Source: an uncultured delta proteobacterium (GTDB lineage Bacteria; Desulfobacterota; Desulfomonilia; Desulfomonilales; Desulfomonilaceae). Taken from it: a stretch of DNA of 64,000 nucleotides. This document shows, one piece after another, positions 2,640 to 18,047 of this stretch. Position numbers and translations under genes: made by a program. The DNA lies in NCBI GenBank assembly GCA_963789265.1, contig CAWBKB010000004.1:160001-224000 (forward strand), in the 5' to 3' direction. The notes under the pieces were generated by a model. The model saw nothing but the letters and a program-made list of their open reading frames with translations, did no database searches and had not been told where the DNA came from. Every line of letters starts with the position of its first letter. Within the stretch, counting starts at the first letter, position 1.

Positions 2640-3977
2640 ATGAGTCACGCCAAAATCCTCGCCATTGACGACGAAAAAAATATCAGACACTTGATCAAGA
2701 ACGAGCTCACACTTGAGGGCCTCGATGTCTCTACGGCCAAAAGCGGCGAGGAGGGCCTCAAACTTTTCAAGGATAAGAGCTTTGATGTCGTGCTCCTTGA
2801 CATAAGGCTCCCCAAGATGAATGGCCTCGAAGTGCTGAGGAATCTGAAACAAAAATCTCCCCGCACTGAAGTCATTATGATCACCGGTTACGGAGACATA
2901 CAAACTGCCGTACAATCCATGAAACTGGGCGCCCGAGACTACATCACCAAGCCTTTCAAGTTGAGCGAGCTATTGGCCATGGTTAATGAAATCGTGGCTG
3001 AAAACGGGAGATATAAGGACCTGCGGACGCAGCATCCGGCCAATCCGGCCGATGGTGCGCCCAGCTTTGTCGGATGCCCCAGCGAAGAAATGCAAGAGGT
3101 CTATGACCTGGCCGATAGGGTGGCCGATACGGACGTGACCGTGCTGATCCAGGGCGAGACTGGAGTGGGAAAGGACGTGCTTGCGGTCCGGATCCATCTC
3201 AACAGCAGTAGAAAGGCCAATTCTTTTGTTGTAGTTGATTGCGGATTGCTCACTCAAAATCTGGCCGAGAGTGAACTATACGGGCACACTAAGGGTGCTT
3301 TTTCCGGCGCGTCTGAAACGAAACAGGGCCTGGTGGAAAAAAGCCATGAAGGCACAATATTCTTCGACGAAATCGGAAATATCGAGCTGGACATGCAAAA
3401 GAAATTTCTCCGGTTTCTCGAGACGAAAAAGTTCCGCCGCCTGGGCGAGACCAAGGAAAGGCAGGTTGACAGCCGAATAATCCTGGCGACCAATCTGGAT
3501 CTAAATGATGCGGCACAAAAGGGGATTATGCGGCGAGACTTGTTTTACCGTATGGATGTAATCTGCATTCGGGTACCTCCTCTCAGGAATCGGGCCGAAG
3601 ACATTGCGCCGCTAGCCCGGCATTTCCTTGGACTGAACCGCGGCAAGCAGCAGCCCAGGGAAATTTCTCCCGAAGCCTTGATGGCACTCGCCGAGTACAC
3701 CTGGCCCGGCAATATCAGAGAGTTGAGATCCGTAATTACCAAGGCTACGATATTCTCCAAGTCCGACGTGATTACGCCTGAAGACCTGCCCGCGCACATC
3801 CTGACGGACAAAAAACCTCTGCTATCACCACCCAAGAGTCTGGAAGATCTCGAAAAGGATCACATTGTGAAGGTCCTCGAGGATACGGGCGGTAACCAGA
3901 GCAAAGCCGCGGACATTCTGGGTATCAACCGCAAGACTCTGTACAAGAAGATGCATAAGTACCAACTTTTTGTCTAA
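2640..3977 (+). CDS. NtrC-family sigma54-dependent response regulator (REC-AAA+-Fis HTH)
   Basis: REC (LLDIRLP), Walker A GETGVGKD, ESELYGH, GAFSGA, FFDEIG, WPGNIREL and C-terminal HTH LGINRKTLYKK. Confidence 0.95.
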   Translation: MSHAKILAIDDEKNIRHLIKNELTLEGLDVSTAKSGEEGLKLFKDKSFDVVLLDIRLPKMNGLEVLRNLKQKSPRTEVIMITGYGDIQTAVQSMKLGARDYITKPFKLSELLAMVNEIVAENGRYKDLRTQHPANPADGAPSFVGCPSEEMQEVYDLADRVADTDVTVLIQGETGVGKDVLAVRIHLNSSRKANSFVVVDCGLLTQNLAESELYGHTKGAFSGASETKQGLVEKSHEGTIFFDEIGNIELDMQKKFLRFLETKKFRRLGETKERQVDSRIILATNLDLNDAAQKGIMRRDLFYRMDVICIRVPPLRNRAEDIAPLARHFLGLNRGKQQPREISPEALMALAEYTWPGNIRELRSVITKATIFSKSDVITPEDLPAHILTDKKPLLSPPKSLEDLEKDHIVKVLEDTGGNQSKAADILGINRKTLYKKMHKYQLFV

Positions 3978-4390: not shown

Positions 4391-4552
4391 AACCCCCCTT
4401 TAGTAAAGGGGGAAGGGGGGATTATGAATGTGATTTGGCATTACTGGCTCGGTTCTTAGCCTCTATGTGACGGTCATCAGTGATGGGGTATTATTGTATC
4501 GGCATTTGCCCCGACGCCTCAAATTCCCACAAATTGGCTAGTATTTCAGTTC

Positions 4553-4568
4553 AGGCATGGACCTTGCA
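4553..4568 (+). promoter_or_regulatory. Sigma54 -24/-12 promoter of the DUF362-mft-lar operon
   Basis: AGGCATGGACCTTGCA: GG(4554-55)-N10-GC(4566-67), downstream of a sigma54 activator gene. Confidence 0.65.
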
Positions 4569-4875
4569 TACCCTCACGCGCGGCCGACCACGAACGGAAA
4601 TTCTCAACCTCGAATAAATCGGCGTGAAAATCAGGGAACTGGTCGAGACAAGGTAGTCGGATGGATTCTTGGCCTGGACCGGCGCTTCCAAATGTGGCTG
4701 GCAGTCCGCGGAATCATAAGGCGAAAGGAGGCTGGTACGAATAGCTCCCGGTCGTAGGAGAAGCTTTGAGGAACAAGAAGCAGTCTCTCGGGCATCGGCT
4801 TGGAGTCGTATTCCGATTCCAAGCAGTTGCTTGCTCGAAACCATTACCCTCACAACCAATTAGAGGAGGAGTATC

Positions 4876-6234
4876 ATGCCGGAAAAGGTCTCTAAGGTCT
4901 GGTACGCTGCTGCCGGTGCCACAAACTGGACTGAGAGTACTATCTGTAAAGCCAAAGACCTGTTCTACATGGCCGGTCTCGATAAATGCATTGCGAAAGA
5001 CGACAGCGTTGCCGTCAAAATCCACTGCGGCGAGTGGAACCGAACCGCTTGTTTGAGGCCGGAGTTCGTGGCCGCCATCGTAGAAGAGGTCAAGGCCTGT
5101 GGCGGAAAACCATTTGTTACTGACACCACTACCCTTACGTATCATCTCTACAACAATCGTTGCACAGGCCAGATGGAGACAGAGGGCGCCAATCGTCACG
5201 GCCTTAACTGGGCGAGCCTCCAGGCTCCATTCATAATTTCGGACGGCTTCTTCGGGGAAGACGATCTGAGGGTAGAGCTTCCTGAAGGGAACATCCTTAA
5301 GGAAACCTACATCGGCCGAGGCATTTATGAAGCTGACGCTTGCATCAATCTGGCTCATGCAAAAGGTCACCCCATAACTGCGTATGGAGGATGCATCAAG
5401 AATTTCGGTATCGGTGCTCAATCCAAGCGCGGCAAGTACCAGACACACCTCGCCTTCTGGGGCGATCCCGAAGACGCGATCGGTTATCCGAAGGTCAACA
5501 AGGAAGGCTGCAGAGGAAAAGAGTGTCCGTATGCAAAAATGTGTGAGGATAGCTGTCCCGAAGAGGCCATCAAGGTCAAACCTGACGGGGTAGAACTCGA
5601 TTATTCCAAGTGCGCTCTTTGTTACTCCTGCCAGGTGACCTGTATGTTCACAGGCATGGAAGGAATTGGCTTCCGGGATGACTATTTCCCGTTGGCGCAG
5701 ATCGCCATGTCCGACGCTGCACTGGGCTGCGTGAAAACATTCAAGCCCGGCAAGATAGGCTACATGGCTTATGCGGTTGATATGTCCCCGGAATGCGACT
5801 GCTTCCCCTGGGCAGGCCTTCCTGTAGCAACAGATGTCGGTGTTTTTGCATCTAACGACCCTGTGGCTATTGACACCGCAATCTGCGACTTACTCGACAA
5901 AGCGCCCATCTACCCGGGCGGCAGATCCGAGGAGCTGGGTTTGAAGCCCGGAGAAGACAAGCTGAAGGCCGTCAACGCCTTTACGCCCAGGATCCAGCTC
6001 AAGGCCGGCGAGAAAATAGGCATGGGGACCATGAATTATGAATTGGTCACCTATGAGCCCGAACTCAATCCGGAAAATATTGCCAAGTGGCAGATCCGAA
6101 AAGTGCCCATGACGGTTAATCCTATGCGTCAAGTCTTCAAGCACCATCACCTTGGCAGAGAATTCCCGTTCGGCCGACACGGCGATGCCAAGACGTGGAT
6201 CGGCAAATGGAAAGGCTTCGATCCCACTGCCTAG
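4876..6234 (+). CDS. DUF362-family protein with an inserted ferredoxin-like Fe-S domain; candidate nickel-pincer enzyme
   Basis: Strong RBS GAGGAGG. Motifs KIHCGE, HAKGH..GGCIKN, CxxxxCxxxxxCxxxCP, CxxCxxCxxxC, PECDC and DPVAID. Confidence 0.85.
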   Translation: MPEKVSKVWYAAAGATNWTESTICKAKDLFYMAGLDKCIAKDDSVAVKIHCGEWNRTACLRPEFVAAIVEEVKACGGKPFVTDTTTLTYHLYNNRCTGQMETEGANRHGLNWASLQAPFIISDGFFGEDDLRVELPEGNILKETYIGRGIYEADACINLAHAKGHPITAYGGCIKNFGIGAQSKRGKYQTHLAFWGDPEDAIGYPKVNKEGCRGKECPYAKMCEDSCPEEAIKVKPDGVELDYSKCALCYSCQVTCMFTGMEGIGFRDDYFPLAQIAMSDAALGCVKTFKPGKIGYMAYAVDMSPECDCFPWAGLPVATDVGVFASNDPVAIDTAICDLLDKAPIYPGGRSEELGLKPGEDKLKAVNAFTPRIQLKAGEKIGMGTMNYELVTYEPELNPENIAKWQIRKVPMTVNPMRQVFKHHHLGREFPFGRHGDAKTWIGKWKGFDPTA

Positions 6235-6264
6235 CACGTCTTGTGAATCAGCATAAGGTTTCGT

Positions 6265-6298
6265 TGGGGCGGGCCTTGGATCATCCGCCCCACATTTT
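6265..6298 (+). terminator. Hairpin (possible leaky intrinsic terminator) after the first DUF362 gene
   Basis: TGGGGCGG(6265-72)/CCGCCCCA(6285-92) followed by CATTTT. Confidence 0.45.
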
Positions 6299-6480
6299 CT
6301 CAAAAGCCGCCCGGAAGCATTCTCTGGAGACTTTCAAAATGCCGGGGGACTGAATCCGGTCGTTATGAATCACTGAGGCAAGTAAGAGCCGCAGGGAGTG
6401 CATTTGCCGTATTGGACAAGCACATTTTCAAGCAAAATCAGAGCCTTTTGGAGAGGCAACAAACCTTAACTAGGGTGACC

Positions 6481-7594
6481 ATGTCCAACGTCTATTGGAT
6501 CAAGGGCCGTTCGGCAGGCATTTATCAGAGCATCATTGCAAAAATGACGGGACTGCTTAGTACCCGAAGAGTTGACCGGGCTGATGGTGCCGGGAGAAAG
6601 CCTTGCCTTAAAGATAAATATGAGTGAACTCGGCTACGCACATTATCTGCCGCCCGTAGTCGTCACCACCCTTTTTGAAAAAGCAAGGGGCTTGGGCGCT
6701 AAACCGGTTGTGACCGACAGTTGTAGTCTGTTTAAAGGTTCCCGCTTCAGCGGTTACGATTGGATAAACAGCGCTCTTACACTTGGCTACAGTACTGGTG
6801 AGACATTTGACAATCAGATGATGCTTGCTGGAGGGTACACGAATGAAGAAGGCAGATTCTACCCCTCCGAAGGCAGGCATCTTGGCGGCGTCGAACTTGG
6901 CAGTCTTCTTACAGACACGGGAAACGTGGTCGTAATTTCCCATGTCACAGCTCATCCGCTCCTGGGACTCAGCGGAGCCGTCTACGACTTTGGTGTAGGC
7001 ATGCTGACGACCTCGGGCAAGCTCAGGGTTCATTCGTGCCTGGAGATAATTTTCGATCAAAGCAAGTGTGACAATTGTGAGGCATGCTTGTCTTTCTGTC
7101 CTACTGGAGCCATATCCAGCGGCTCACCTACCATCGTTTATGACCGCGAGATTTGCAACAACTGCCTTGGATGCTTTCTTGCCTGTCCGAACGGCGCCAT
7201 GAGCATCAAGCCGGAAGGAATTCCTATATTTCAAGAAAGTGTAGTCGAATCCGCTCGCACCGCAATGGACAACCTGCGGGGTGCGGCTTTTTTCATAAAT
7301 TTCCTGAGTTCCGTGACTCCGCAGACGAACGACCATCCTTTCTCCGACATACCGTTCATCCCCGATCTAGGCATACTGGCATCGGAAGATCCGGTAGCCG
7401 TCGATTGGGCAACTTATCAGATGATTACCAGCAGTCCCGGTGTGCCCGGTTCGATAGTCGAACAATTGGGTGTATTGGGCAAAGGTCAGGACAAAATCAA
7501 GGCTATTACAGGAATCGACCCTGAGCATTGGATCGAATACGCGGAACAGATGAAACTCGGGAGCCGGGCTTGTGAGTTCCTATCAAACGCCTGA
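6481..7594 (+). CDS. Second DUF362-family protein with a 2x[4Fe-4S] domain; apparent +1 frameshift near 6563-6565
   Basis: MSNVYWIKG N-terminus from ATG 6481 joins the 6572 ORF if one C is removed. Two CxxCxxCxxxCP motifs; DLGILASEDPVAVD. Confidence 0.75.
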
Positions 7595-7644
7595 GTCGTT
7601 TGGTGAGGGCTCCGATATTTTTCGCTCAAAAGGAGGCGGCATCA

Positions 7645-8544
7645 ATGTCCACCGACCGCAGCATGGCGGAAATGCACAAAATGCACGGACCCATCAATCA
7701 GGCCATGGCCCACGTGAATTATAAGCTGGCCGTGATCAGCGGAAAAGGGGGAGTGGGAAAGACCAGCGTGGTAGTCAACCTCGCTGCCGCCTTAAAGAAA
7801 AAGGACATGGAGGTTGGGATTTTTGATGCGGACGTTCACGGCCCTAGCGTGCCCAAAATGGTGGGTATCAAAACCAAAATGAGGGACCTGCTTCACGGAA
7901 GCCACGGCATCGACCCTGTTTCCACAGATCACGGATTAAAGGTCATGTCCGTAGCGCTCATCTGGCCGACCGATATGACGCCCATTATGTGGCGCGGCCA
8001 GTACAAAGCCCGCGTGCTCAGGCAGTTCCTAAGCTCCATCAAATGGCATGAACTTGATTTCCTGCTCGTGGATCTTCCACCCGGTACGGGTGATGAGCCC
8101 ATCACGATTATGAAATCAATACCAAGTCTGGACGGTCTGATTGTCGTCACCACACCTCAGGAGATCTCCACCATCGTATGTAGCAAGGCCATCAATGCGG
8201 CCAAGGAACTCAACACCCCCATTATCGGCCTCATTGAGAACATGAACTCCTATCGTTGCCCCGGCTGCGGGCGGGAAGAATTCCTCTTCGGGAGAGAAAA
8301 AGGGGAGAAGCTGGCCAATACCTTCAAGATTCCGTTCCTCGGGGGCATACCTCTGGATGGGCAATATTCGGATGCCGCGGACCAAGGGATCCCTATCGTT
8401 TTTAAGCACCCGGATTCTCTAACTTCTCAGGCCATGTTGAAAATTGCAGATGAGATTGTCAGAAGATTGCCTCCCAGGCCAAAAGCGGTTGTAAAAGAGC
8501 ATGCCTGGGAAGAGGGCAGGGAACACAAACGAAAAACTCATTAG
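7645..8544 (+). CDS. Mrp/NBP35 (ApbC) Fe-S cluster carrier ATPase
   Basis: SGKGGVGKT, DADVHGPSVP, DLPPGTGDE and ENM..CPGC; RBS AGGAGG before ATG 7645. Confidence 0.9.
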   Translation: MSTDRSMAEMHKMHGPINQAMAHVNYKLAVISGKGGVGKTSVVVNLAAALKKKDMEVGIFDADVHGPSVPKMVGIKTKMRDLLHGSHGIDPVSTDHGLKVMSVALIWPTDMTPIMWRGQYKARVLRQFLSSIKWHELDFLLVDLPPGTGDEPITIMKSIPSLDGLIVVTTPQEISTIVCSKAINAAKELNTPIIGLIENMNSYRCPGCGREEFLFGREKGEKLANTFKIPFLGGIPLDGQYSDAADQGIPIVFKHPDSLTSQAMLKIADEIVRRLPPRPKAVVKEHAWEEGREHKRKTH

Positions 8545-8649
8545 CAGATCCCACGCGGAATTTTGACAACGCGCACGGCGGGATCCAAATCCATGCGGCG
8601 CCGAAGCGAAATCCGCGATTGAAGATAACAACGCAGGAAGGAGTTTGAG

Positions 8650-9009
8650 ATGGCAGATCAACAAAAAATCGATGTCACCGGGAAAGGTCCCGCCTTCATG
8701 AGAGAAGCCCTGGAGTTGTTCAGACAGATTGACGGACAGTGTGCTGCTTTGTCCCCGGATGCTGCCGTGAAAATCAAGGCAACTCTTTCAACCAAGGCAC
8801 ATGAAATTGAGCCTCTGCTGAGCCGAGCGTACATGAAAACAGTCAAGGCGGGAGAGACTGCTCTTGGCTGTAAGCAACTTGCAACCGACTTGAAATCGTC
8901 CATAGACACCGGTGATGAGGCTAAGGCATTGGAAGCCTTGGATAACCTTGGGACGCAACTCGATGGGCTCGTCCACAAAGTCAAAACTTTTGTGGTGAGA
9001 ATGACGTGA
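8650..9009 (+). CDS. Hypothetical helical protein
   Basis: RBS AAGGAG, ATG start, operonic position. Confidence 0.7.
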   Translation: MADQQKIDVTGKGPAFMREALELFRQIDGQCAALSPDAAVKIKATLSTKAHEIEPLLSRAYMKTVKAGETALGCKQLATDLKSSIDTGDEAKALEALDNLGTQLDGLVHKVKTFVVRMT

Positions 9010-9025
9010 TGTAGGAGGGGTAGTT

Positions 9026-9328
9026 TTGGCGGGAAAGCTGAGCGACGATCTTTTGGCCGTCATGAGGATCATTCAGGATAAGGGCGGCACGCACTGTTCG
9101 GGATCCTGCCATCATCGGAAACCTGGTGAATTCCACTGTCACTTGATCGGGCAGGAACTGAAGATGTCGTCGTCAGGTGTAAAAGATCGAATTCTTGCTC
9201 TGCTTCGGATGGGCCTGCTGAAACGCGAGAGAGTGGGCGGGCAAGAAGCATACCCCACCACGATGTTCACCATTTCGGCAAAGGGGGAAATGGTGCTGAC
9301 TCAGATCAGCGATGGCGACAAGAAATAG
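9026..9328 (+). CDS. Small winged-helix-like protein with a Cys/His-rich insert
   Basis: RBS AGGAGG. HCSGSCHHRKPGEFHCH precedes the HTH-like segment IGQELKMSSSGVKDRILALLRMGLL. Confidence 0.6.
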   Translation: MAGKLSDDLLAVMRIIQDKGGTHCSGSCHHRKPGEFHCHLIGQELKMSSSGVKDRILALLRMGLLKRERVGGQEAYPTTMFTISAKGEMVLTQISDGDKK

Positions 9329-9336
9329 AGGTCCTT

Positions 9337-9654
9337 ATGCCGCACCCAATGCATGAAGCGGTAGTTGACTTGATTCAGAAGGCCGTAGCTCTAATGGATG
9401 GCTTCCTGCGATATCAAACCGATTTGAATGAATATTCGGAGAAACTCAGAGCACTGGACGTGGACACCGTAATGGTCGCGTACGCAAACGATTTCAAGAA
9501 TGACGCCACGCTGGTCTATTACCTGGATGCGCTCATGCTCCTCTCTTCGCTCCAGCATGAGTTGGATTTCCAGGTTGCCGAGTACGGCGCCAACGTAGCG
9601 TTGGAAGACATGCGGAACTTACAAGAGCTGTTGAAGAAATTTCCCGAAAAGTAA
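9337..9654 (+). CDS. Hypothetical acidic helical protein
   Basis: RBS GAGG, ATG start, tightly packed in the operon. Confidence 0.7.
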   Translation: MPHPMHEAVVDLIQKAVALMDGFLRYQTDLNEYSEKLRALDVDTVMVAYANDFKNDATLVYYLDALMLLSSLQHELDFQVAEYGANVALEDMRNLQELLKKFPEK

Positions 9655-9703
9655 CACCGGTCATCACGCGGCTGCACCCGGAGGCGCCGGAAAGGAGAAA
9701 CAG

Positions 9704-10513
9704 ATGAAGCTTGAAGGCAAAGTAGCCGTTGTTACAGGTGGAGCCCGAGGCAACGGCTTCGCCACAGCCAAACTGTTGGCTGAAGAAGGAGCGGATATAG
9801 TAATTGCCGATATCTGTGAGGATATGGCCACGATCCCTTATGCCATGTCCACCCCGGAAACGATGGCTGATGCGGTCGATGGCATAAAGCAATTGGATCG
9901 AAAAGCCGTTGGGATCAAGTGCGACGTGCGGAAATCTTCAGATGTTGAAGCAATGGTCCAACAAACTTTGGACACGTTCGGCAGAATCGACATACTGGTT
10001 AACAACGCCGGCAACTCCTCCATGATGGCGGTCGCGGACATGAGCGAGCAGGAATGGGACGAAGTTCTGGACACTCATCTCAAGGGAACTTTCCTGTGCT
10101 CCAAGTATATTGTCCCCAGGATGATAGAACAGCACAGCGGCAAGATCATCAACATCTCGTCAGTAGGCGGTCACCGTGGATTCGGATTGGGCGCTCACTA
10201 CTGCGCAGCGAAGCATGGGATCATTGGGCTGACGAAGTCGCTGGCTATGGAAGTGGCGGATCACAATATTAACGTAAACGCGGTGTGCCCGGGCACGGTT
10301 TGGACACCGATGATGCAGGGAGTAGCCTCATTTTTCGGCATGGAGGCTGAAGAGGCCAAGGAGCAGTTCCTGGCAGGGCATCTGTTCAAGGACCGCGAGA
10401 TCATGCCCGAAGATATAGGCCGAGCGGTGCTGTGGCTTGCAACCGATGATTCCAAATGCATCACCGGTCAATCCGTGCTCGTGGATGCCGGCTGGACCTG
10501 CCGGGCGCCATAG
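9704..10513 (+). CDS. Mycofactocin-coupled SDR family oxidoreductase
   Basis: TGGARGNG, NNAG and YCAAK. Carries the ADIC..IPYAMSTPET insertion typical of mycofactocin-dependent SDRs; adjacent to mftA. Confidence 0.85.
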   Translation: MKLEGKVAVVTGGARGNGFATAKLLAEEGADIVIADICEDMATIPYAMSTPETMADAVDGIKQLDRKAVGIKCDVRKSSDVEAMVQQTLDTFGRIDILVNNAGNSSMMAVADMSEQEWDEVLDTHLKGTFLCSKYIVPRMIEQHSGKIINISSVGGHRGFGLGAHYCAAKHGIIGLTKSLAMEVADHNINVNAVCPGTVWTPMMQGVASFFGMEAEEAKEQFLAGHLFKDREIMPEDIGRAVLWLATDDSKCITGQSVLVDAGWTCRAP

Positions 10514-10602
10514 CAGATGTTATTGCATTCCTGGCCGGCCTTGGCGCGGTCAGTTGGAGGTCGGGCTAAACTGACGTACAAAAATGAGGAGGCACGGGTC
10601 TT

Positions 10603-10728
10603 ATGGACACAGAAGTCGACAGAGAAGACGTACAGATTAACGATGTAGAATGTCATGAAGGGCCATCCGTTTTGGAAGAAATAACTATCGAAGAGATGGC
10701 TGTGGACGGAATCTGCGGGATTTATTAG
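10603..10728 (+). CDS. mftA: Mycofactocin precursor peptide, variant type (41 aa; not in the ORF track)
   Basis: RBS GAGGAGG. Translates as MDTEVDREDVQINDVECHEGPSVLEEITIEEMAVDGICGIY*, matching the canonical IDGMCGVY C-terminus; directly upstream of mftB-mftC. Confidence 0.93.
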   Translation: MDTEVDREDVQINDVECHEGPSVLEEITIEEMAVDGICGIY

Positions 10729-10793
10729 GTCACGCCCAGGTGTCTGGTTCCTTACTCAAATCGAGCTGGGAACCAGACGGAAGCATACGCACC

Positions 10794-11075
10794 ATGTCTT
10801 CTGATGCAGTCTACCGCTTAGCGGATGGCGTCCAAGTCCGACGAGAGAAATTTGGCCTTTTGTTTTACGACTACCGGGGACCAAGACTATATTTTGTGCC
10901 ATCGGGAGATCTAATGGAAGATCGGTTCTTTGACGGCGAACGGACCGCCCGGGAGTTGGCCGAATCCGTATGTGCAAAACATGATTGGCCGCGACGATTG
11001 ACCGTGGGCCGAGTGAACCGGATCCTCGAATTGCTCAAGATGAAAGGGCTTATCCATGAGCAATCGCTACGTTGA
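10794..11075 (+). CDS. mftB: Mycofactocin biosynthesis chaperone (RRE/PqqD-like)
   Basis: VQVRREKFGLLFYDY..RLYFV resembles MftB; lies between mftA and the radical SAM gene. Confidence 0.85.
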   Translation: MSSDAVYRLADGVQVRREKFGLLFYDYRGPRLYFVPSGDLMEDRFFDGERTARELAESVCAKHDWPRRLTVGRVNRILELLKMKGLIHEQSLR

Positions 11076-12087
11076 TACAGGTCTGTCGGCCCCGGTAAAC
11101 GTAACCTGGGAAGTTACGTATGCCTGCAATTTGTCCTGCGCCCATTGCCTCTCCGATTCAGGGGGACAGAGAAAGGGCGAGCTGACCACAGAGGAATGCC
11201 GCAGGATCATTGACGCCCTGTCGGCGAGCAGGGTTTTTCAGTTAAGTATAGGAGGGGGGGAGCCTTTTGTGCGCGATGACTTTCTCGATCTGATGGATCA
11301 TGCCCATGAAAAAGGCATAGTCACCTGTATCAGCACAAACGGCACCATGATTCATGAGGAGATCGCACGCAGGCTCGATCACAAGCTGGTTTACATTCAG
11401 GTCAGCCTCGAAGGAGCTAAACCAGCGTCCAACGACAGCATTCGAGGCGAGGGGAGTTTTCGCCGTGCCTTACGTGGCTTGGAATGCTTGAAGAATAGAG
11501 ACATAGAAGTCAGCATAAACACTGTCTTGACCAGGGTCAGTTTTCCCGAACTGGATGCCCTTGCTGCTTTGGCCGCTTCTCTCGGAGCCAAATTCCGCGT
11601 CTCGAGATTCCGACCGTCCGGCAGAGGCAAGAAGAGTTGGGCAAACCTGAACGTTTCCAGAAAACAAATGGTCGCTTTTTCCGATTGGTTGAGCGGTCAC
11701 ATGAATGTGTCTACAGGAGATTCCTTCTTTTCCGTAGCTCACGAAGATCGTAGATCTCTTGGTTTGAACATGTGCGGAGCATGCAAGCTGACATGTTGTG
11801 TCTCTCCGCTCGGCCAAGTGTACCCCTGCGCATTTCTCCAGGAAGAGGAATTTCTGGCCGGAAACTTGCCCCGGGATGCCTTTGCACCTATATGGACCGA
11901 CGCCGCGGTCTTTAAATCATTCCGAGAACTTGAAATAAGATCCTGCGAGAGTTGCGATCGATTCGACCTATGTCATGGCGGATGCCCCGCCATCGCTTAT
12001 CATACCCAAAAGAAGCTGGGACTTCCCGACCCGGGATGTCTTGCCAATTGCGTTTCCGTCAAATCGTCAATATCAAGTGTGGCTTAA
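11056..12087 (+). CDS. mftC: Mycofactocin radical SAM/SPASM maturase
   Basis: TWEVTYACNLSCAHCLS, GGGEP, ISTNG and SPASM cysteines LNMCGAC..CC..YPC..CESC..CHGGC. Confidence 0.92.
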   Translation: MSNRYVDTGLSAPVNVTWEVTYACNLSCAHCLSDSGGQRKGELTTEECRRIIDALSASRVFQLSIGGGEPFVRDDFLDLMDHAHEKGIVTCISTNGTMIHEEIARRLDHKLVYIQVSLEGAKPASNDSIRGEGSFRRALRGLECLKNRDIEVSINTVLTRVSFPELDALAALAASLGAKFRVSRFRPSGRGKKSWANLNVSRKQMVAFSDWLSGHMNVSTGDSFFSVAHEDRRSLGLNMCGACKLTCCVSPLGQVYPCAFLQEEEFLAGNLPRDAFAPIWTDAAVFKSFRELEIRSCESCDRFDLCHGGCPAIAYHTQKKLGLPDPGCLANCVSVKSSISSVA

Positions 12088-12088
12088 C

Positions 12089-13582
12089 ATGAATCCGCTC
12101 GCAAAGGCAGGCTTTTGTCTCAGTCCTGAAACCAGCCTGATTTCCGGACACGGTGGCGGAATTGTCTTCAGGCCAGGGCCGCTGAGAGCCCTGAGAGTGA
12201 ATGCGCCTGCCTTTGATTTGTTGCGGAAATGTGGCAACGGCCGATCTGTAGACGACCGGTGTTTGGACAAATCGGTACGGTTGGACTCAATGCTTAGCTT
12301 CTTCGACCGATTGTACCAAGCCGGCCTTTTGGAATGGAAGCCTCCCGAGGAAGGCTTTGAGCCCTCCGTCAGCGTTGTCGTAGCCGTGTACAATCGGGCG
12401 GGCGAAATCGGTTCGTGCATAGAATCGTTGATGAACCTGATTTACCCGCGCTTGAAATATGAAGTCATCGTTGTGGACGATGCTTCCGATGATGACACGA
12501 GTTCCGTGGTGTCGCGGTACGGCGTCAAGCTCATCAGATTGGAGCGAAATCAAGGTCAGTCCGCGGCTCGCAATGTTGGAGTAACCGAAGCCCGAGGAGA
12601 AATAATCGCTTTCATAGATAGCGATTGTATAGCCGAACCTGAATGGCTACGCGAACTAGTGCCATATTTTCAGGATTCGAGGAACGCTCTGGTGGGTGGC
12701 TACGTTGCGCCCTATTACCGAAATTCCGTGCTTGACCGATATGAAGAAGTCAAATCGCCTCTAAACATGGGCAAGGACATGCTTATCGGCACGGGTGAAG
12801 AATCAGACTTCTATGTTCCGACTTGCAACATGCTGGTGCGGAGAGATGTTTTCCTGCGGGTACGCGGATTCAACGAGAGCCTGCGAGTCGGCGAGGACGT
12901 GGATTTTTGCTGGAAACTCAAAGAAAATGGCTGCCGGCTGATTTACGCCCCATACGGAACCGTGAGGCACAAGCACCGAGGTCGGTTCGGTGAGGCCTTC
13001 AAACGCCGTTTCGATTACGGGACCTCGGAACCAGTTCTCTATTCCCGCCACAAAGCCATATTCAAGCTTTATCCGTGGCAACCGGCATGTATGGCCGTTT
13101 TTTTTCTCTGTGGATTGGGATTGCTGTCAGCACAGCCTTTGACTGGTCCAGCGGCAGCGGCTTGCTTCCTTTGGGACGTATTCTGCAAAAGTAGACGCTA
13201 CAGAAAGCGCATTGGAATAGCTGTTAAGTTCGGGGCCGTCCTGAGAGCCAGCGCGGTCCGTCACTTTGACCTTGCGTATCACCTTACCCATCACCTGGTT
13301 CGGTATCATCTGGTCCTGATGGCGCTGATTGCGTTTGTGCTGCCGTCGACCATTCCAGTGGTTGCAGCTATTGTGCTGCTTCCTGTGATTACCGAGTTTG
13401 TCAAGAAGAAACCTTGCCTCACTTTCCCTGTGTTCCTGGCCTTGTTTCTGACAGAGCAGGTCTCATACCAGGCAGGTGTGTTTTGTGGTTGCCTCAGACA
13501 AAAGAGCTTCCGGCCTTACAGACTTGTATTGGCTCGCGGTACCGGACACCGCAGGCTGGCATTCTCCACAAAATTGAATTAG
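12089..13582 (+). CDS. mftF: Mycofactocin glycosyltransferase (GT2 with C-terminal membrane segment)
   Basis: ATG 1 nt after the mftC stop. VVDDAS, AARN, FIDSDC, YVPTCNMLVRR, LRVGEDVDFCW and RRFDYGTSE. Confidence 0.88.
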   Translation: MNPLAKAGFCLSPETSLISGHGGGIVFRPGPLRALRVNAPAFDLLRKCGNGRSVDDRCLDKSVRLDSMLSFFDRLYQAGLLEWKPPEEGFEPSVSVVVAVYNRAGEIGSCIESLMNLIYPRLKYEVIVVDDASDDDTSSVVSRYGVKLIRLERNQGQSAARNVGVTEARGEIIAFIDSDCIAEPEWLRELVPYFQDSRNALVGGYVAPYYRNSVLDRYEEVKSPLNMGKDMLIGTGEESDFYVPTCNMLVRRDVFLRVRGFNESLRVGEDVDFCWKLKENGCRLIYAPYGTVRHKHRGRFGEAFKRRFDYGTSEPVLYSRHKAIFKLYPWQPACMAVFFLCGLGLLSAQPLTGPAAAACFLWDVFCKSRRYRKRIGIAVKFGAVLRASAVRHFDLAYHLTHHLVRYHLVLMALIAFVLPSTIPVVAAIVLLPVITEFVKKKPCLTFPVFLALFLTEQVSYQAGVFCGCLRQKSFRPYRLVLARGTGHRRLAFSTKLN

Positions 13583-13632
13583 CTAGGAAAAGTGAAAAAT
13601 TTGCCCGTGATTTCGAGGTGGCCGTTTTGAGA

Positions 13633-14460
13633 ATGAAACCAAAAGTAATTAGTGAAAAATTTGGCCGTCTTCAGGACATCCTGAAGGGAATGAAAAGCGT
13701 TTTGGTGGGTTTTTCCGGAGGCGTCGATAGCACATTGCTCCTCAAAGCCGCTAAGGGCGTTTTGGGTAACAAAGTCCTGGCTGTTACTGCTCAGTCTCAC
13801 ACTACAGCCGGCCATGAAAAGATCGATGCTGCCAGACTTGCTAAACTGGTGGGCGCGCCGCACTTGGCACTCGAATCCCGCGAGTTCGACCTTCCCGAGT
13901 TTGTTCGAAATTCTCCTGATAGGTGTTATATTTGCAAGAAAAGCCGATTTGGAGACCTCGTCAACCTGGCGAATAAAAAGGGATTGAGATCCGTCATTGA
14001 CGGGGAAAACATGGATGACGATGGAGACTATCGGCCGGGTGCACAGGCCGCCCGGGAATTGGGGGTTCGCAGTCCGCTCCGCGAGTCTGAGTTATCTAAA
14101 GATGAAATTCGTTTTCTTTCAAAGAAGCTGGGTCTTCCGACATGGGATAAACCTTCCTACGCGTGCCTGGCCTCGAGAATTCCTTACGGCACTCCTCTAA
14201 CAGCGGACAGACTCAGGCAGATCGATGCTGCCGAAGAACGCATTCGCGAGCTGATCCCCGGATGCCAGGCAAGGGTGCGACATTATGGGAAAACGGCCCG
14301 CATCGAGGTTGAGCCAAGAGCTTTGTCAAAGCTGATGCACATTGGAGTTCGTAGCCATATACTCAGTTATTTTCACCTGTTAGGGTTTGATTTCGTCACC
14401 CTTGACCTGGAGGGCTACCGCACAGGAAGCTTGAACCGGGAAATTCACAGCGGGAAGTAG
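13633..14460 (+). CDS. larE: ATP-dependent sulfur transferase for nickel-pincer nucleotide (NPN) biosynthesis
   Basis: PP-loop FSGGVDS, RCYICK, DYRPG and PSYACLASRIPYG. Confidence 0.92.
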   Translation: MKPKVISEKFGRLQDILKGMKSVLVGFSGGVDSTLLLKAAKGVLGNKVLAVTAQSHTTAGHEKIDAARLAKLVGAPHLALESREFDLPEFVRNSPDRCYICKKSRFGDLVNLANKKGLRSVIDGENMDDDGDYRPGAQAARELGVRSPLRESELSKDEIRFLSKKLGLPTWDKPSYACLASRIPYGTPLTADRLRQIDAAEERIRELIPGCQARVRHYGKTARIEVEPRALSKLMHIGVRSHILSYFHLLGFDFVTLDLEGYRTGSLNREIHSGK

Positions 14461-14464
14461 AAAG

Positions 14465-15289
14465 ATGGATGGCAAGCATATAAGAAATCTGCTCGAGGCA
14501 GTGCAGAGTGGGAACATGGAAGTCGATTTCGCCATGGAGCGGCTGAGGAAACTACCATTCGACGATTTGGGATACGCAAAGATCGACTACCATCGGTGCG
14601 TTCGACAAGGGGTTCCGGAGGTTATATTCTGCCAGGGAAAGACCATCGAGCAAATTCAAGGCATTGTGAAACAGATTGCCCGACACCACAGCAACATTCT
14701 GGCCTCGAGGGCGAGTCGCGAGGCTTATGAGGCTATTCGGGAGGTCGTTCACGAATGCCGATATCACGAGATGGCCCGAATGGTAGTTGTCAATCCTCGC
14801 GAAATTGAAAAAATTGGCAATATCGCTGTCGTCAGCGCGGGAACATCGGATATGCCTGTGGCCGAAGAGGCCGCAATTACGGCAGAAACGCTGGGGAATA
14901 GTGTAAAACGTATGTACGACGTGGGCGTCGCGGGGATCCACAGAGTGCTGCACTGCTGCGAGGAACTCTTTAAAGCCAATGTTGTAATTGTTGTGGCGGG
15001 CATGGAAGGCGCCCTTGCGAGCGTTGTAGGGGGGCTGGTTTCGAGCCCGGTCATCGGAGTTCCCACCAGCGTGGGTTACGGAGCGAGCTTCGGGGGCATA
15101 GCCGCCCTCCTCAGCATGCTGAATAGCTGTGCTTCCGGCGTGTCTGTGGTAAATATCGACAACGGATTCGGCGCAGGCTACCAGGCCAGTCTTATTAACA
15201 TGAGAGCCGCCAAGAGAAGCGGCAGCGAATCAGTCCACATGCCTGTTCACGAAGAGGACGGATCGTGCCTTACCGAGGTGTGCTGCTGA
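14465..15289 (+). CDS. larB: NaAD carboxylase/hydrolase for NPN biosynthesis
   Basis: GVPEVIFCQGKT, AGTSDMPVAEEA, VAGMEGAL, PTSVGYG, MLNSCASG and NIDNGFGA. Confidence 0.95.
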   Translation: MDGKHIRNLLEAVQSGNMEVDFAMERLRKLPFDDLGYAKIDYHRCVRQGVPEVIFCQGKTIEQIQGIVKQIARHHSNILASRASREAYEAIREVVHECRYHEMARMVVVNPREIEKIGNIAVVSAGTSDMPVAEEAAITAETLGNSVKRMYDVGVAGIHRVLHCCEELFKANVVIVVAGMEGALASVVGGLVSSPVIGVPTSVGYGASFGGIAALLSMLNSCASGVSVVNIDNGFGAGYQASLINMRAAKRSGSESVHMPVHEEDGSCLTEVCC

Positions 15290-15329
15290 CCGGAATTCTC
15301 CTTTCATAATGGCCTAAAAGGAATGGAAC

Positions 15330-16529
15330 ATGAAGATTGCGTACTTTGACTGCTTTGCCGGCGCCAGCGGCGACATGATACTGGGATCTCTCATCGACGC
15401 GGGCCTTAGCCTGGAACAACTCAGGAACGAACTGGCCAAGCTGCATCTCACCCATTATGACCTGGAGACAAAGAAAGTTACCAAGAGGGGGCTGGGCGGA
15501 AGCCAAGTTATCGTCAATATTGACGAAGATCACCATCACCATCAGCATAGACACCTTCATGACATCAAAAAGATCATACAAAACAGTGAATTGAACGAAT
15601 ACATCAAAAGGCGGAGCATCGAAATATTCACCAAATTGGCCGAAGCCGAAGCCAGGGTTCACAGGACCACCGTGGAAGAGATCCACTTTCACGAAGTAGG
15701 TGCCATGGATGCCATCATAGACGTGGTCGGGTCTGTAGCCGGCCTTTCAGCCTTAGGCGTGGAAAAGGTCAGTTGCTCGTCCCTGCATGTGGGAACCGGG
15801 ACGATCGAGTGCGCTCACGGGACTTTGCCTGTTCCAGCGCCGGCCACAGCAGAACTGATCAAAGGCAAACCCGTCTATTCCACCGGCGTAGTGGGAGAAC
15901 TTTTGACTCCCACCGGAGCTGCGATTCTCACTACTCTCGCCTCCGATTTCGGACCAATGCCGCTCATGAACGTGGAAAAGATTGGATATGGGGCGGGCAC
16001 ATCTGATCCGGCTATACCAAATCTCCTTCGCTTGATCGTAGGACAGTCATCTGTGGAAGTGCCGAATTATGACCTGGAGCGTGTGGCAGTAGCTGAAACC
16101 AATATAGACGACATGAACCCGCAGATATATGACTATCTGATGCAGAAGATGCTGGATATGGGGGCTCTTGATGTGTTTCTCGTTCCAATGCACATGAAAA
16201 AGAACCGGCCTGGCACTCTGGTGACGGTTATTTGCCATCCCGAGCGGATAAACGAGTTTGCCGGTTTCTTGATGCGGGAAACTACCACCATAGGGCTCAG
16301 ATGGCGCATTGACAACCGTATCAAAGCTCGAAGATCAATTCGAGAGGTTCAGACAAAGTATGGACCGGTCAAGGTCAAGGTTGCGGAAGTGAGTGGTGGC
16401 ACGCTAAACGCGACTCCGGAATATGAGGACTGTAAGCGTCTTGCACTGGAAAAAGAAATTCCCTTGAAGGAATTGATGGAGCACGCGAGAATGGCCGCGA
16501 CTGAAGCTTTTCTCACCGGTGTGAAATGA
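15330..16529 (+). CDS. larC: Nickel insertase (cyclometallase) for NPN biosynthesis, full-length
   Basis: DCFAGASGDM, His-rich HHHHQHRHLH, HFHEVGAMDAIID, ETNIDDM, MKKNRPG and PEYED. Confidence 0.95.
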   Translation: MKIAYFDCFAGASGDMILGSLIDAGLSLEQLRNELAKLHLTHYDLETKKVTKRGLGGSQVIVNIDEDHHHHQHRHLHDIKKIIQNSELNEYIKRRSIEIFTKLAEAEARVHRTTVEEIHFHEVGAMDAIIDVVGSVAGLSALGVEKVSCSSLHVGTGTIECAHGTLPVPAPATAELIKGKPVYSTGVVGELLTPTGAAILTTLASDFGPMPLMNVEKIGYGAGTSDPAIPNLLRLIVGQSSVEVPNYDLERVAVAETNIDDMNPQIYDYLMQKMLDMGALDVFLVPMHMKKNRPGTLVTVICHPERINEFAGFLMRETTTIGLRWRIDNRIKARRSIREVQTKYGPVKVKVAEVSGGTLNATPEYEDCKRLALEKEIPLKELMEHARMAATEAFLTGVK

Positions 16530-16609
16530 CGAGCGCGCACAAGCGGTATATTGCGGGGTTTGCCCCGCGCAATGTTCCTTCTCTCGACGTTATCTTAGAG
16601 CAGCCGTTG

Positions 16610-16820
16610 AGAAACTGTCTCAAAAACGATGAAGCGGTCGGAATCGTAGCACGAATCCCTCACCCTGTATCCCTGTCCCAGAGGGCGAGGGAAGTGCAAT
16701 ACTGCCCTGGATCTGCTCCCTCTCCCTCTGGGAGAGGGTTGGGGTGAGGGCGACGATTATACGAATGAGACTGAATAGTGGCACGATTCTGGTCATCAAA
16801 ATAATTTTGAGACACTTTCT
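16610..16820. mobile_element. MITE-like element (family B) with internal CCCTCACCC/GGGTGAGGG palindromes
   Basis: TIRs AGAAACTGTCTCAAAA (16610-25) / TTTTGAGACACTTTCT (16805-20), one mismatch. Confidence 0.6.
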
Positions 16821-16883: not shown

Positions 16884-18047
16884 ATGTTCAAGGCAGGTAC
16901 AGTAGTATCCAGGGACCCGATTTCTAAATCGGCGGGAGAGCGCCTGGGAGAGGCTCTCCTGGAAAGGCTGGATGGTCACGCTCCTTCCCTTTGCTGGCTG
17001 TTCAGCACCCCGTCCCTAGAATTGAAGGAGATGGTGAGCGGAGTGGTCCATGCCGTGGGCAGCAGCCATCTATTGGGGTGTACGACTGATGCCGAAATAT
17101 CAACCGAAGGCTTGAGCACCGGCTCGGTGGTCCTCTGCGGCGTTGTCACCGATCAAATCCGGTTTCACTTAGCTTTGGCAAAAGGTCTGCGTCAGGACTC
17201 CGGGCGAGCCGGCAAGAGACTTGCCAAACAGTTTCCTTCAACCGTGCAGTACGTGCAAATTTTCTCGGATGGCCTGACAGGAAATGGTTGCGCGCTCTTG
17301 CGAGGTTTGAGTTCCGCCTTGGGACGACATGTTCCCATAGCCGGTGGCACTGCGGGCGACGCCGGAGCGTTTCAGACTACTTCACAGTTTCTCGGGACGA
17401 AGATGTTTTCAGACGCGGTGGTAGCCGTGGGTTTTGAAGGCGATTTTGCAGTTGGAATGGGTGTACGGAGCGGTTGGTCCCCTATCGGGATTGCAAAGAA
17501 AGTCACCAAAGCTTCCGGCAACATTGTTTATGAATTAAACGGACAACCCGCGCTTGAAGTGTACGAGCGTTTCCTGGGAAAGCACGCGGACAAACTGCCC
17601 GCGGTGGGAGTTGAATATCCCCTTGGTCTGGTTCACAAATTGGAAGGCACAACTGAAGAAGAGTACCATATCTTGCGGGCCACTATGGCGGTCAACCGCC
17701 AAGACGGATCCATAGCCTTCGCTGGAGAAATTCCTGAGGGCTCCATGGTGCGCCTTACTTGCGGCGATCATGCTTCCATACTTGAAGCTGCGGAACAGGC
17801 AGCTTCTATGGCGATTAATGAAATGGGAAACCGCACTCCTTTCCTAGCGTTCTTTTATTCGTGCATGGCCCGCAGAATCGTGCTGGGCCGACGCACAGAA
17901 GAAGAAATAGATAGGATTCGTTTGGCGGTTGGAGCGAGATTGCCTATCGTGGGATTTTACACTTATGGAGAATTTTGCCGGGTCGCATGCAACGGGCCTA
18001 ACCTGTTCCACAATGAAACGGCCTCGGTGTCAGTCATCGGATTGTGA
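16884..18047 (+). CDS. FIST (NosP-like) signal transduction protein
   Basis: GCTTDAEI, SDGLTGNG, GGTAGD, GW.PIG, SCMARR, GFYTYGE and HNET. Confidence 0.9.
   Translation: MFKAGTVVSRDPISKSAGERLGEALLERLDGHAPSLCWLFSTPSLELKEMVSGVVHAVGSSHLLGCTTDAEISTEGLSTGSVVLCGVVTDQIRFHLALAKGLRQDSGRAGKRLAKQFPSTVQYVQIFSDGLTGNGCALLRGLSSALGRHVPIAGGTAGDAGAFQTTSQFLGTKMFSDAVVAVGFEGDFAVGMGVRSGWSPIGIAKKVTKASGNIVYELNGQPALEVYERFLGKHADKLPAVGVEYPLGLVHKLEGTTEEEYHILRATMAVNRQDGSIAFAGEIPEGSMVRLTCGDHASILEAAEQAASMAINEMGNRTPFLAFFYSCMARRIVLGRRTEEEIDRIRLAVGARLPIVGFYTYGEFCRVACNGPNLFHNETASVSVIGL

Follow-up and report, generated by a model that had tools for sequence, protein, structure and literature searches.

Organization of the locus

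The stretch of DNA analysed here, referred to as the window, comprises 64,000 nucleotides from the genome of an uncultured delta proteobacterium (contig CAWBKB010000004.1, positions 160,001 to 224,000; G000:C4:160001-224000 in the numbering used below). The genome assembly comprises 6.06 Mb in 9 contigs and is 95.6% complete and 6.1% contaminated. Genes were identified from an open reading frame (ORF) listing together with Pfam and NCBIfam scans at curated cut-offs. These scans confirmed the gene order that had been proposed in an earlier note on this DNA, namely genes encoding two DUF362 proteins (DUF362a and DUF362b), an Mrp-type ATPase, three small proteins, a short-chain dehydrogenase/reductase (SDR), the mycofactocin proteins MftA, MftB, MftC and MftF, and the nickel-pincer nucleotide (NPN) biosynthesis proteins LarE, LarB and LarC. 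All of these genes were located on the plus strand, and each family match was above its curated cut-off (Table 1). The same note had stated that mftD, mftE and larA were missing from the 64 kb, and the family scans agreed: no MftD, MftE or LarA family member was found among the window ORFs. The analysis described below, which is based on sequences and structural models, suggests that the missing LarA is probably DUF362a, a predicted nickel-pincer enzyme wired to iron-sulfur (Fe-S) clusters. Published work is cited by PMC number.

Table 1. Features of the operon and its flanks, with positions in the window.
Feature	Position	Strand	Evidence and remarks
Fe-dependent alcohol dehydrogenase, upstream neighbour	11..889	+	PF00465 174 bits, PF25137; truncated by window start
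Histidine kinase	1145..2341	+	HisKA, HATPase_c
Sigma-54-dependent response regulator (NtrC/AtoC type)	2640..3977	+	Response_reg, Sigma54_activat 200 bits, AAA_lid_14, HTH_8
Sigma-54 type -24/-12 element GGCATGGACCTTGCA	4554..4568	+	322 nt 5' of DUF362a start
DUF362a	4876..6234	+	PF04015 141.3 bits, cut-off 24
DUF362b	6481..7594	+	PF04015 73.6 bits (cut-off 24) and Fer4; frameshifted near 6545-6575
Mrp/ApbC/NUBPL-type P-loop Fe-S cluster carrier	7600..8544	+	PF10609 290 bits; start uncertain
Small protein, 119 aa	8650..9009	+	No Pfam/NCBIfam match
Small protein, 100 aa	9026..9328	+	No family match; Cys/His-rich motif, likely winged-helix tail
Small protein, 105 aa	9337..9654	+	No family match
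Mycofactocin-coupled SDR, subfamily 3 (SDR3)	9704..10513	+	NF040490 522 bits, cut-off 385
Variant MftA, 41 aa	10603..10728	+	NF040489 55.6 bits, cut-off 30; tail ...VDGICGIY
MftB chaperone	10740..11075	+	TIGR03967 52.2 bits, cut-off 33
MftC radical SAM/SPASM maturase	11056..12087	+	TIGR03962 367.5 bits, cut-off 265
MftF glycosyltransferase	11975..13582	+	TIGR03965 351.8 bits, cut-off 280; true start probably later (match begins at residue 52)
LarE, CxxC...C ([4Fe-4S]) type	13414..14460	+	TIGR00268 304 bits, cut-off 150; true start probably near 13660
LarB	14465..15289	+	NF033503 300 bits, cut-off 175
LarC, LarC1 and LarC2 fused	15330..16529	+	PF01969 502.6 bits; LarC1 227.5 (cut-off 90), LarC2 152.9 (cut-off 50)
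FIST sensor-domain protein	16884..18047	+	FIST, FIST_C
PAS hybrid histidine kinase	18051..20069	+	PAS, HATPase_c, Response_reg

The NPN pathway is complete in the operon, which also holds the only LarC gene of the whole genome. LarE carries SGGVDS and CxxC...C motifs; SGGxDS and CxxC...C have been described for Thermotoga as motifs of the catalytic [4Fe-4S] class of LarE (PMC9283937). The operon LarE is predicted to belong to this class, not to the sacrificial class named by its NCBIfam label. The Mrp-type ATPase has a CPGC motif and matched the MrpORP (295 bits) and ApbC (214 bits) models, both under cut-off. A 73-aa ORF at 16526-16747 was rejected as a gene, since it had no tblastn counterpart in the 160 loci fetched, including locus L005, whose operon proteins are otherwise 84-96% identical to those of the window.

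Fold and conserved residues of DUF362a and DUF362b

At the sequence level, DUF362a and DUF362b were matched by PF04015 only; PF09861 (Lar_N) and the NCBIfam LarA models were not matched. DUF362 and DUF2088, the LarA domain family, are placed in one Pfam clan (CL0471), and DUF362 served as an outgroup in a study of LarA (PMC11770544). An AlphaFold2 model of DUF362a, built from a 64-sequence alignment, had a mean predicted local distance difference test (pLDDT) score of 94.7. When this model was searched with VIA-align, the top 12 PDB entries were all from the LarA family, with Z scores of 14.1-17.8 and root-mean-square deviations (rmsd) of 3.0-4.0 Å over 213-235 residues; the next entry had a Z score of 5.1. 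Using Foldseek, all 17 matches below an E value of 0.001 were LarA-family structures (probability 0.99-1.00). For DUF362b, the intact orthologue from L005 was modelled (pLDDT 89.6), and the LarA-family entries were recovered at Z scores of 16.2-17.6. As modelled, both DUF362a and DUF362b have the two-domain fold of LarA.

Both proteins also contain a ferredoxin-type segment, located immediately past the putative cofactor-binding region. Residues 183-245 of the L005 DUF362b matched clostridial 2[4Fe-4S] ferredoxins (Z score of approximately 9.4, rmsd of 1.8 Å over 55 residues). In DUF362a, a ferredoxin-like insert of approximately 60 residues (about 205-265) with eight conserved Cys residues lies just after the last His of the triad described below, beginning approximately 20 residues past the putative nickel ligand.

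A LarA reference alignment was prepared from 26 sequences from genomes of the phylum, which match PDB entries 6D6Z, 9EID, 2YJG, 6C1W and 5HUQ. Its invariant positions include a His, a Lys and a His at a spacing of 10 and 16 residues. In L. plantarum LarA numbering, we take Lys184 to be the tethering residue, His200 the nickel ligand, His174 the nearby catalytic residue and His108 the second catalytic residue. Comparison of the DUF362a and LarA alignments by hhalign, with whole proteins, with the N-terminal domains only and with the insert removed, paired H165, K175 and H191 of DUF362a with the invariant His, Lys and His of LarA in all three runs, and the 10/16 spacing was identical. In LarA, the Lys tethers the cofactor and the His binds nickel (PMC13524815). 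Residues H165, K175 and H191, a GIGxQSKRGKY stretch and the eight insert Cys residues were at least 95% conserved among 112 non-identical DUF362a sequences. The triad residues are regarded as equivalent because of the fold, the spacing and the conservation taken together, the alignment statistics being weak. DUF362b retains the two triad His residues; the Lys position is occupied by Tyr in the window and is variable in the orthologues, which are uninterrupted and 369-374 aa in length.

The genome encodes 13 DUF362 genes (14 matches), and all three triad residues are kept in 10 of these 13 paralogues. A predicted complex of DUF362a and DUF362b scored 0.11 against a mark of 0.32 in a run without controls, a result that counts neither way. 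The suggestion in the earlier note that DUF362 proteins use NPN was strengthened by the shared clan, the LarA fold and the DUF362a triad, and was weakened by the alignment statistics.

Conservation of the gene block

Two sets of loci were compared with the window by tblastn, using 18 window proteins as queries (E ≤ 1e-5, at least half of the query). The first was anchored on MftC, with one genome per species, and comprised 80 loci, nearly all from sulfate-reducer lineages and two from Dehalococcoidia; the second was anchored on DUF362a and comprised 80 metagenome loci, some of them on the same contigs as the genome set. The linkage of the mft, lar and DUF362 genes, which the earlier note had put forward as a test, proved to be conserved. 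The lar genes directly followed the mft genes in 49 of the 56 MftC loci with at least 4.5 kb of downstream sequence, and the seven loci without lar were second mft copies, Dehalococcoidia, or L060. DUF362a was present in 44 of the 54 MftC loci that extend 6.5 kb or more in the upstream direction. Both flanks were available for 43 loci, of which 35 carried DUF362a, mft and lar, three carried mft and lar only and five carried neither DUF362a nor lar; DUF362a without lar was not observed among them. In the four genomes examined whose locus lacks DUF362a (L041, L045, L063 and L082), a DUF362a/b pair occurs at another site, in two cases 21-24 kb away on the same contig. The gene order from DUF362a to LarC was fixed across families. 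Where enough downstream sequence was available, MftA with a Gly-Ile-Tyr (GIY) core was found beside lar genes in 44/44 loci, compared with one of six loci encoding MftA with a Gly-Val-Tyr (GVY) core.

In the metagenome loci, DUF362b followed DUF362a in 45/45 cases and Mrp came next in 43/45. Downstream sequence of at least 9 kb was available for 23 of these loci: SDR3, mft and lar were present in 16, lar without mft or SDR3 in two, and five were without lar. Two mft-free loci were informative. Locus L150 encodes a kinase, a sigma-54 regulator, DUF362a, DUF362b, Mrp, an extended SDR, two small genes, LarB, LarC and LarE, the SDR being an Epimerase-family protein that is unrelated to SDR3. Locus L188 encodes LarE, DUF362a, DUF362b, Mrp, two small genes and LarC, and has no SDR. 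In addition, a DUF362a homologue (BAF60818.1) that is 66% identical is encoded by Pelotomaculum thermopropionicum SI, for which a mycofactocin cluster has been reported (Haft 2011, PMC3023750).

The three small proteins of 119, 100 and 105 aa had 54, 46 and 52 further non-identical orthologues, respectively (55, 47 and 53 with those of the window). Their profiles were compared with the mft-free loci. A relative of the 119-aa protein was found in L150 (E 2e-11), a relative of the 100-aa protein in L188 (E 6e-11), and relatives of the 105-aa protein in L150, L188 and L183 (E 6e-19 to 7e-15). Because relatives occur in mft-free loci, the small proteins were taken to be part of the DUF362/Mrp module rather than of the mycofactocin pathway. 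A C-x3-C..HHR..HCH pattern was conserved in the 47 sequences of the 100-aa protein; the nearest Atlas clusters were small winged helix-turn-helix proteins, which is a lead only. This protein accompanies DUF362a/b and Mrp even where mft genes are lacking, and it could handle or sense a metal, perhaps nickel.

The occurrence of the module without mft genes could also be explained if DUF362a/b formed an NPN/Fe-S dehydrogenase for a small metabolite, such as a 2-hydroxy acid or the SDR product, with mycofactocin serving as a parallel carrier in the same regulon. The characterised LarA-fold enzymes all act on 2-hydroxy acids (PMC11770544), and genes for iron-dependent alcohol dehydrogenase (Fe-ADH), AOR or aldehyde dehydrogenase (ALDH) lie nearby in several loci. 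The near-perfect association of GIY-type MftA with lar and the fixed gene order speak against such an arrangement, and we consider it quite unlikely.

LarA elsewhere and co-occurrence of DUF362 and LarC

The sole LarA-like sequence in the genome was a 183-aa ORF adjacent to ilvD, whose match spans positions 2-133 of the Lar_N model (204 positions in all). All 22 tblastn matches obtained with 26 full-length LarA homologues fell at this stub, and none extended past LarA residue 162, that is, they ended before the triad region. No LarA match was found in the closest relative, G155. The earlier note's statement that larA is absent therefore has to be divided: it holds for the DUF2088 family, apart from an N-terminal stub in the genome at large, but not for the fold, since two predicted LarA-fold proteins are encoded in the operon. 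A LarA client elsewhere in the genome, which that note had named together with mftD among the observations that would speak against its proposal, was not found in usable form in this genome, but full LarA genes were present in related ones, as described below.

Family-level occurrence was compared across a sample of 151 genomes from the phylum, related genomes among them not being independent. LarC was detected in 131 and DUF362 in 132; both were present in 124, DUF362 only in eight, LarC only in seven and neither in 12. The resulting odds ratio was 27, with a Fisher p value of 2e-8 that is overstated because of kinship and because several of the double-negative genomes are small genomes of few families. 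There was no strong LarA match (best E no better than 1e-15) in 51 LarC-containing genomes, of which 46 have DUF362. In 14 control genomes, LarC was present in four of the five with DUF362, and LarA in only two.

These data bear on whether the lar genes serve clients other than the DUF362 pair, either a LarA encoded elsewhere or an unrecognised enzyme, in which case DUF362a/b would not bind NPN and their clustering would reflect co-regulation. Full-length LarA was indeed found elsewhere in four of five other operon-bearing genomes. In two of these, G158 and G160, the operon LarC is the only LarC although a full LarA is present, so the operon lar genes must also serve LarA there. The five metagenome DUF362a loci without lar and the statistical weakness of the triad alignment fit the same explanation. 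However, neither the genome studied here nor G155 has a usable LarA, the triad is at least 95% conserved on a LarA fold, none of the 43 two-flank loci has DUF362a without lar, and 46 of 51 LarC genomes lacking a strong LarA have DUF362. Furthermore, the DUF362a/b and Mrp genes have lar genes on either side in L188 and directly precede such genes in L150. Exclusive service to other clients consequently appears quite unlikely to us, and DUF362a is retained as the favoured NPN client.

Two further lar-like genes were observed in the genome. An additional LarB-like gene (G000:C1:871778-872560; L204:5764-6786, minus strand; 340-aa ORF, 51% identical) adjoins a class-V aminotransferase/cysteine-desulfurase-like gene and a gene for a CBS protein. 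A LarE-like gene (37%) is located at G000:C5:120365-121090.

The mycofactocin genes

In the canonical pathway, MftC decarboxylates and cyclises the C-terminal dipeptide of MftA, MftE frees the lactam, its deamination by the FMN-dependent MftD yields the redox-active keto-amide and MftF carries out glycosylation (PMC11778925). In mycobacteria, MftG re-oxidises mycofactocinol and feeds respiration; MftG is lacking from 25% of genomes with MftC, and its substitute is described as an open question (PMC11778925). The operon MftA scored 20.8 bits against TIGR03969, the canonical model with a Gly-Val-Tyr core, which is below the cut-off of 25. Its tail was at least 95% conserved in 37 sequences. A readable MftA tail was obtained for 72 of the 80 loci of the genome set; it was GIY in 64 and GVY in eight. 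The mft genes of the operon belong to the variant type already modelled by NCBI.

Searches of the whole genome gave a best MftD match of 22 bits compared with a cut-off of 471, and no match to MftE or MftG. Neither MftD nor MftE was over cut-off in any of five related genomes; two of them had MftE-like domains that scored 169 and 151 bits, below the cut-off of 172, in ORFs of approximately 795 aa away from the mft locus. The genome-wide search called for in the earlier note was thus negative for mftD and mftE, and for larA yielded only the stub.

The lack of MftD suggests another role for DUF362a, as a biosynthetic NPN/Fe-S enzyme replacing the O2- and FMN-dependent MftD in the oxidative deamination of the cyclised Ile-Tyr core to the keto-amide, while some other enzyme re-oxidises the finished cofactor. 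The MftD step creates the redox-active keto-amide (PMC11778925), and the evidence from fold, triad and linkage applies equally to this role. Against it, GVY-type loci of the same lineages also lack MftD yet have no lar or DUF362 genes, and the occurrence of DUF362a/b, Mrp and lar without mft in L150 and L188 implies that the module is not tied to MftA maturation. In addition, maturation needs little enzyme, and two Fe-S proteins with a dedicated carrier would be more in keeping with a metabolic electron path. We regard a biosynthetic role as unlikely. Both the re-oxidation role that we favour for DUF362a/b and this less likely replacement of MftD without O2, which the earlier note had offered as alternatives, are inferred from the gene content and predicted structures.

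GIY-type MftA was accompanied by SDR3 in 56 of 57 loci, and SDR3, mft and lar form the most constant core of the block, three loci having this core without a local DUF362a. It could therefore be argued that the SDR uses the pincer cofactor, as NPN or in an adenine-dinucleotide form (NPAD), in place of NAD, with DUF362a/b carrying electrons only. This possibility weighs against DUF362a as the client, since pincer enzymes can occur among the NAD(P)-type oxidoreductases encoded beside larBCE, as shown for NphT and cited for an NPAD-dependent ornithine cyclodeaminase (PMC13524815), and in L150 an SDR-type gene lies between Mrp and LarB. On the other hand, SDR3 keeps every classical dinucleotide-SDR motif (TGGARGNG, Asp35, NNAG, Ser and YxxxK), no extra conserved His/Lys pair is evident, and L188 has lar and DUF362a/b genes without an SDR. 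LarB normally releases AMP (PMC13524815), so NPAD would require a variant LarB. A pincer-dependent SDR is accordingly judged to be quite improbable, and DUF362a remains the preferred cofactor user.

A second mft locus was found on the minus strand of the same genome (G000:C1:2568000-2587999; L203). It is of the GVY type and encodes an ALDH, an Fe-ADH, a 46-aa MftA, MftB, MftC (332 bits), MftF and a radical SAM/SPASM protein, together with two OYE-type FMN/FAD enzymes, an ETF-alpha-like protein and an 856-aa membrane protein with cytochrome c7, NarI-like, Fer4 and CCG domains. No lar or DUF362 genes are present there. In the Dehalococcoidia locus L080, which is also GVY-type and without lar or DUF362, genes for OYE, ETF and ETF-QO lie beside mft. 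An electron-transfer module beside mftABC appears to be a recurring theme, and the second locus and the Dehalococcoidia fit the idea that each system has its own electron outlet. In a second mft copy of another metagenome-assembled genome (L070), genes for an Fe-ADH and for MftA (GVY), MftB, MftC and MftF precede those for an HdrA-like protein of 1035 aa and a fusion of MvhD with ferredoxin; these HdrA and MvhD genes represent a third kind of electron module beside mft.

Regulation and surroundings of the operon

The operon is predicted to be controlled by sigma-54, on the basis of the promoter element, an adjacent regulator and rpoN. The element GGCATGGACCTTGCA matches the sigma-54 consensus with two mismatches. 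Such two-mismatch matches were not enriched in the window, with 58 found compared with 61.75 expected from shuffled sequences. Of 49 related loci, 43 had a GG-N10-GC element ahead of DUF362a, at a distance of 144-446 nt, and three of the six misses were loci for which the upstream stretch was not properly available. The sigma-54 response regulator gene lies just 5' of the block and has the same placement in most related loci; in L063, the order Fe-ADH, kinase, sigma-54 regulator also precedes the block. The genome encodes RpoN (Sigma54_DBD, 204.9 bits, C5:66609). The sigma-54 promoter proposed in the earlier note thus gained support from the related loci, the regulator and rpoN, but the element itself was not above chance within the window.

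The leader of approximately 310-320 nt between the sigma-54 element and the DUF362a start (4569-4875) has a comparable length in related loci. Nothing credible was found with Rfam in 3900-20200, leader included. A terminator scan yielded fewer sites than in shuffled sequences, with none between LarC and FIST. The FIST gene follows LarC in most related loci, and the PAS hybrid kinase gene after it is likewise conserved. A second FIST protein, 51% identical to that after LarC, is encoded at 34878-36050, and a third on contig C5.

A minus-strand cluster at 20798-33580 converges on the operon. It encodes two small NIR_SIR (sulfite-reductase-like) proteins, ferredoxins, an SCO4226-like 'nickel-responsive' protein (22206-22544), a 433-aa protein without assignment adjoining an Oxidored_q6 hydrogenase-small-subunit-like gene, MvhD, a 1074-aa HdrA-like protein, HdrB/C-like proteins and a molybdopterin oxidoreductase. 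In L063, an SCO4226-like gene lies between MftF and LarE. Elsewhere in the window, an AAA ATPase gene is followed by two Pup-ligase family genes (PafA/Dop-like; 38753-43872), which are unusual outside Actinobacteria, and a 762-aa protein consisting almost entirely of ankyrin repeats is encoded on the minus strand at 55145-57433.

Proposed mechanism

We would give an even chance to the reading that the operon encodes a two-cofactor anaerobic redox system in which DUF362a is the NPN client and its substrate is most likely the reduced variant mycofactocin. In this proposal, the SDR would oxidise an alcohol and load mycofactocin. In DUF362a, the cofactor would be tethered through Lys175 and its nickel ligated by His191, with His165 serving as the acid/base, as in LarA. 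LarA transiently oxidises a 2-hydroxy acid, with transfer of hydride to NPN (PMC12393405). The reduced mycofactocin core is an alpha-hydroxy-amide and resembles a 2-hydroxy acid, so that a LarA-fold enzyme would be chemically suited to take its hydride. DUF362a would differ from LarA in that hydride is not returned to the substrate; instead, electrons would leave singly through its own two Fe-S clusters and then pass through the 2[4Fe-4S] DUF362b to ferredoxin or a similar carrier. This route is suggested by the position of the DUF362a ferredoxin insert near the putative nickel ligand and by a DUF362b that has 2[4Fe-4S] but no Lys. DUF362a/b would thereby be the anaerobic counterpart of MftG, a mycofactocinol:ferredoxin-type oxidoreductase, and Mrp may supply Fe-S clusters to both DUF362a/b and the [4Fe-4S]-type LarE.

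Several findings, in addition to the LarA genes of the related genomes and the dual service of the operon lar genes in G158 and G160, weigh against this proposal. When the DUF362a profile was searched against PDB sequences with HMMER, only matches to the ferredoxin insert were obtained and no LarA chains. The hhalign support for the triad pairing was low, with probabilities of 4.3%, 16.7% and 9.7% and E values of 0.0095, 0.0015 and 0.0033 for the three runs in the order given above. The second catalytic His of LarA was aligned to a Tyr-His-x-Tyr stretch of DUF362a but was not cleanly paired there; some LarA homologues have only one catalytic His (titles of PDB entries 9Q3J and 9Q3K; PMC12393405).

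The DUF362b gene of the window is frameshifted, its first approximately 26 residues being in the frame of 6481 and the rest in that of 6572; the frame changes next to a CCC run near 6545-6575. In contigs from three DNA runs, one of which holds 65% of the sampled words of the stretch, there was no indel row at the break, the coverage of the site not being displayed; the frameshift reflects an assembly error or else a genuine lesion.

The distribution of the genes also includes unfavourable cases. Five of the 23 DUF362a/b-Mrp metagenome loci had no lar gene within 10 kb, and in G025, a complete genome, approximately 10 kb separate MftC from the nearest LarC-type gene beyond it. A DUF362a orthologue was found in only two of the 151 evenly sampled phylum genomes, so that the block is sporadic, compared with LarC in 131. 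Five of the eight genomes with DUF362 but no LarC were under 90% complete. Finally, we know of no precedent for one-electron chemistry from an NPN hydride adduct.

A broader reading is that DUF362 proteins overall are a large hidden class of nickel-pincer enzymes and that, in those with a ferredoxin insert, the pincer acts like a flavin, converting hydride into single electrons that enter the Fe-S clusters. It is put forward because the triad is kept in most paralogues of the genome, because DUF362 tracks LarC, and because most of the 'orphan' LarC genomes are covered. We hold it tentatively and lean somewhat against it.

If this reading is correct, the pincer of such proteins would accept hydride from carbonyl compounds bearing an alpha-hydroxy (or alpha-amino) group, and in the operon this chemistry would recycle, and perhaps mature, a cofactor made from a peptide. 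The two rare cofactors would together constitute a single anaerobic path from alcohol to ferredoxin that requires neither O2 nor flavin. If a nickel pincer can feed Fe-S clusters, this would be new nickel redox chemistry, a hydride to one-electron converter. The widespread domain DUF362 would gain a function, and the operon would offer a defined set of approximately 14 genes. The users of the nickel-pincer cofactor in organisms that make it without LarA are described as an open question, an aldo-keto reductase (AKR) and an ornithine cyclodeaminase having been found only in 2025-2026 (PMC13524815); a LarA-fold Fe-S family would be a concrete candidate user that covers 46 of the 51 'orphan' LarC genomes in the phylum sample. 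The proposal also bears on how mycofactocin systems without MftG, and here without MftD and MftE as well, are able to work, a question left open in PMC11778925.

Comparison with known systems

In the open-access literature searched, there was no report linking mycofactocin with the nickel-pincer cofactor and none giving DUF362 a function. DUF362 was absent from the accessible text of PMC13524815 and from the 12 of its 17 supplementary files that were searched.

When compared to the LarA superfamily (DUF2088; PDB entries 5HUQ, 6C1W, 2YJG, 6D6Z, 9EIA and 9Q3J/K), the DUF362 pair is alike in its two-domain fold (Z scores of 14-18), its clan and its larB/C/E neighbours, and DUF362a also in its triad spacing. 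In contrast to LarA, both proteins match PF04015 and not PF09861, both have ferredoxin-type inserts, and DUF362b lacks the Lys. LarA enzymes catalyse racemisation or epimerisation without net redox change and contain no Fe-S clusters. DUF362a is therefore not a LarA family member by sequence model; it shares the predicted fold, the clan and the putative cofactor-holding residues, and differs by its Fe-S insert. The AKR NphT and ornithine cyclodeaminase (PMC13524815) resemble the system described here in having larB/C/E neighbours without LarA and a His/Lys motif as a marker, but they have a TIM-barrel or ornithine cyclodeaminase fold and no Fe-S clusters, and NphT carries out intermolecular hydride transfer.

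The mycobacterial MftA-G system shares with the operon MftA, MftB, MftC, MftF and a dedicated SDR, and the same radical-SAM chemistry on the C-terminal dipeptide is expected. The operon differs in that the core is Ile-Tyr (GIY) and not Val-Tyr, MftD, MftE and MftG were not found in the genome, the hosts are strict anaerobes, sigma-54 control is predicted, and the mft genes lie in one block with larEBC and DUF362a/b. MftG, a GMC flavoprotein and mycofactocinol dehydrogenase, would be alike in its role, since DUF362a/b are proposed to re-oxidise reduced mycofactocin and pass the electrons to the transfer chain of the cell. The fold and cofactor are unrelated (FAD for MftG, compared with the proposed NPN and Fe-S clusters), and the acceptor would be ferredoxin-like, whereas MftG feeds an aerobic respiratory chain.

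Further parallels are the second mft locus of the same genome and the Dehalococcoidia locus L080, which also represent MftA/B/C/F systems of anaerobes without MftD, MftE or MftG and with an adjoining electron-transfer module. In contrast to the operon, these loci are of the GVY type, have Fe-ADH or ALDH partners, and combine OYE and ETF with a CCG/cytochrome protein or ETF-QO in place of the lar and DUF362 genes.

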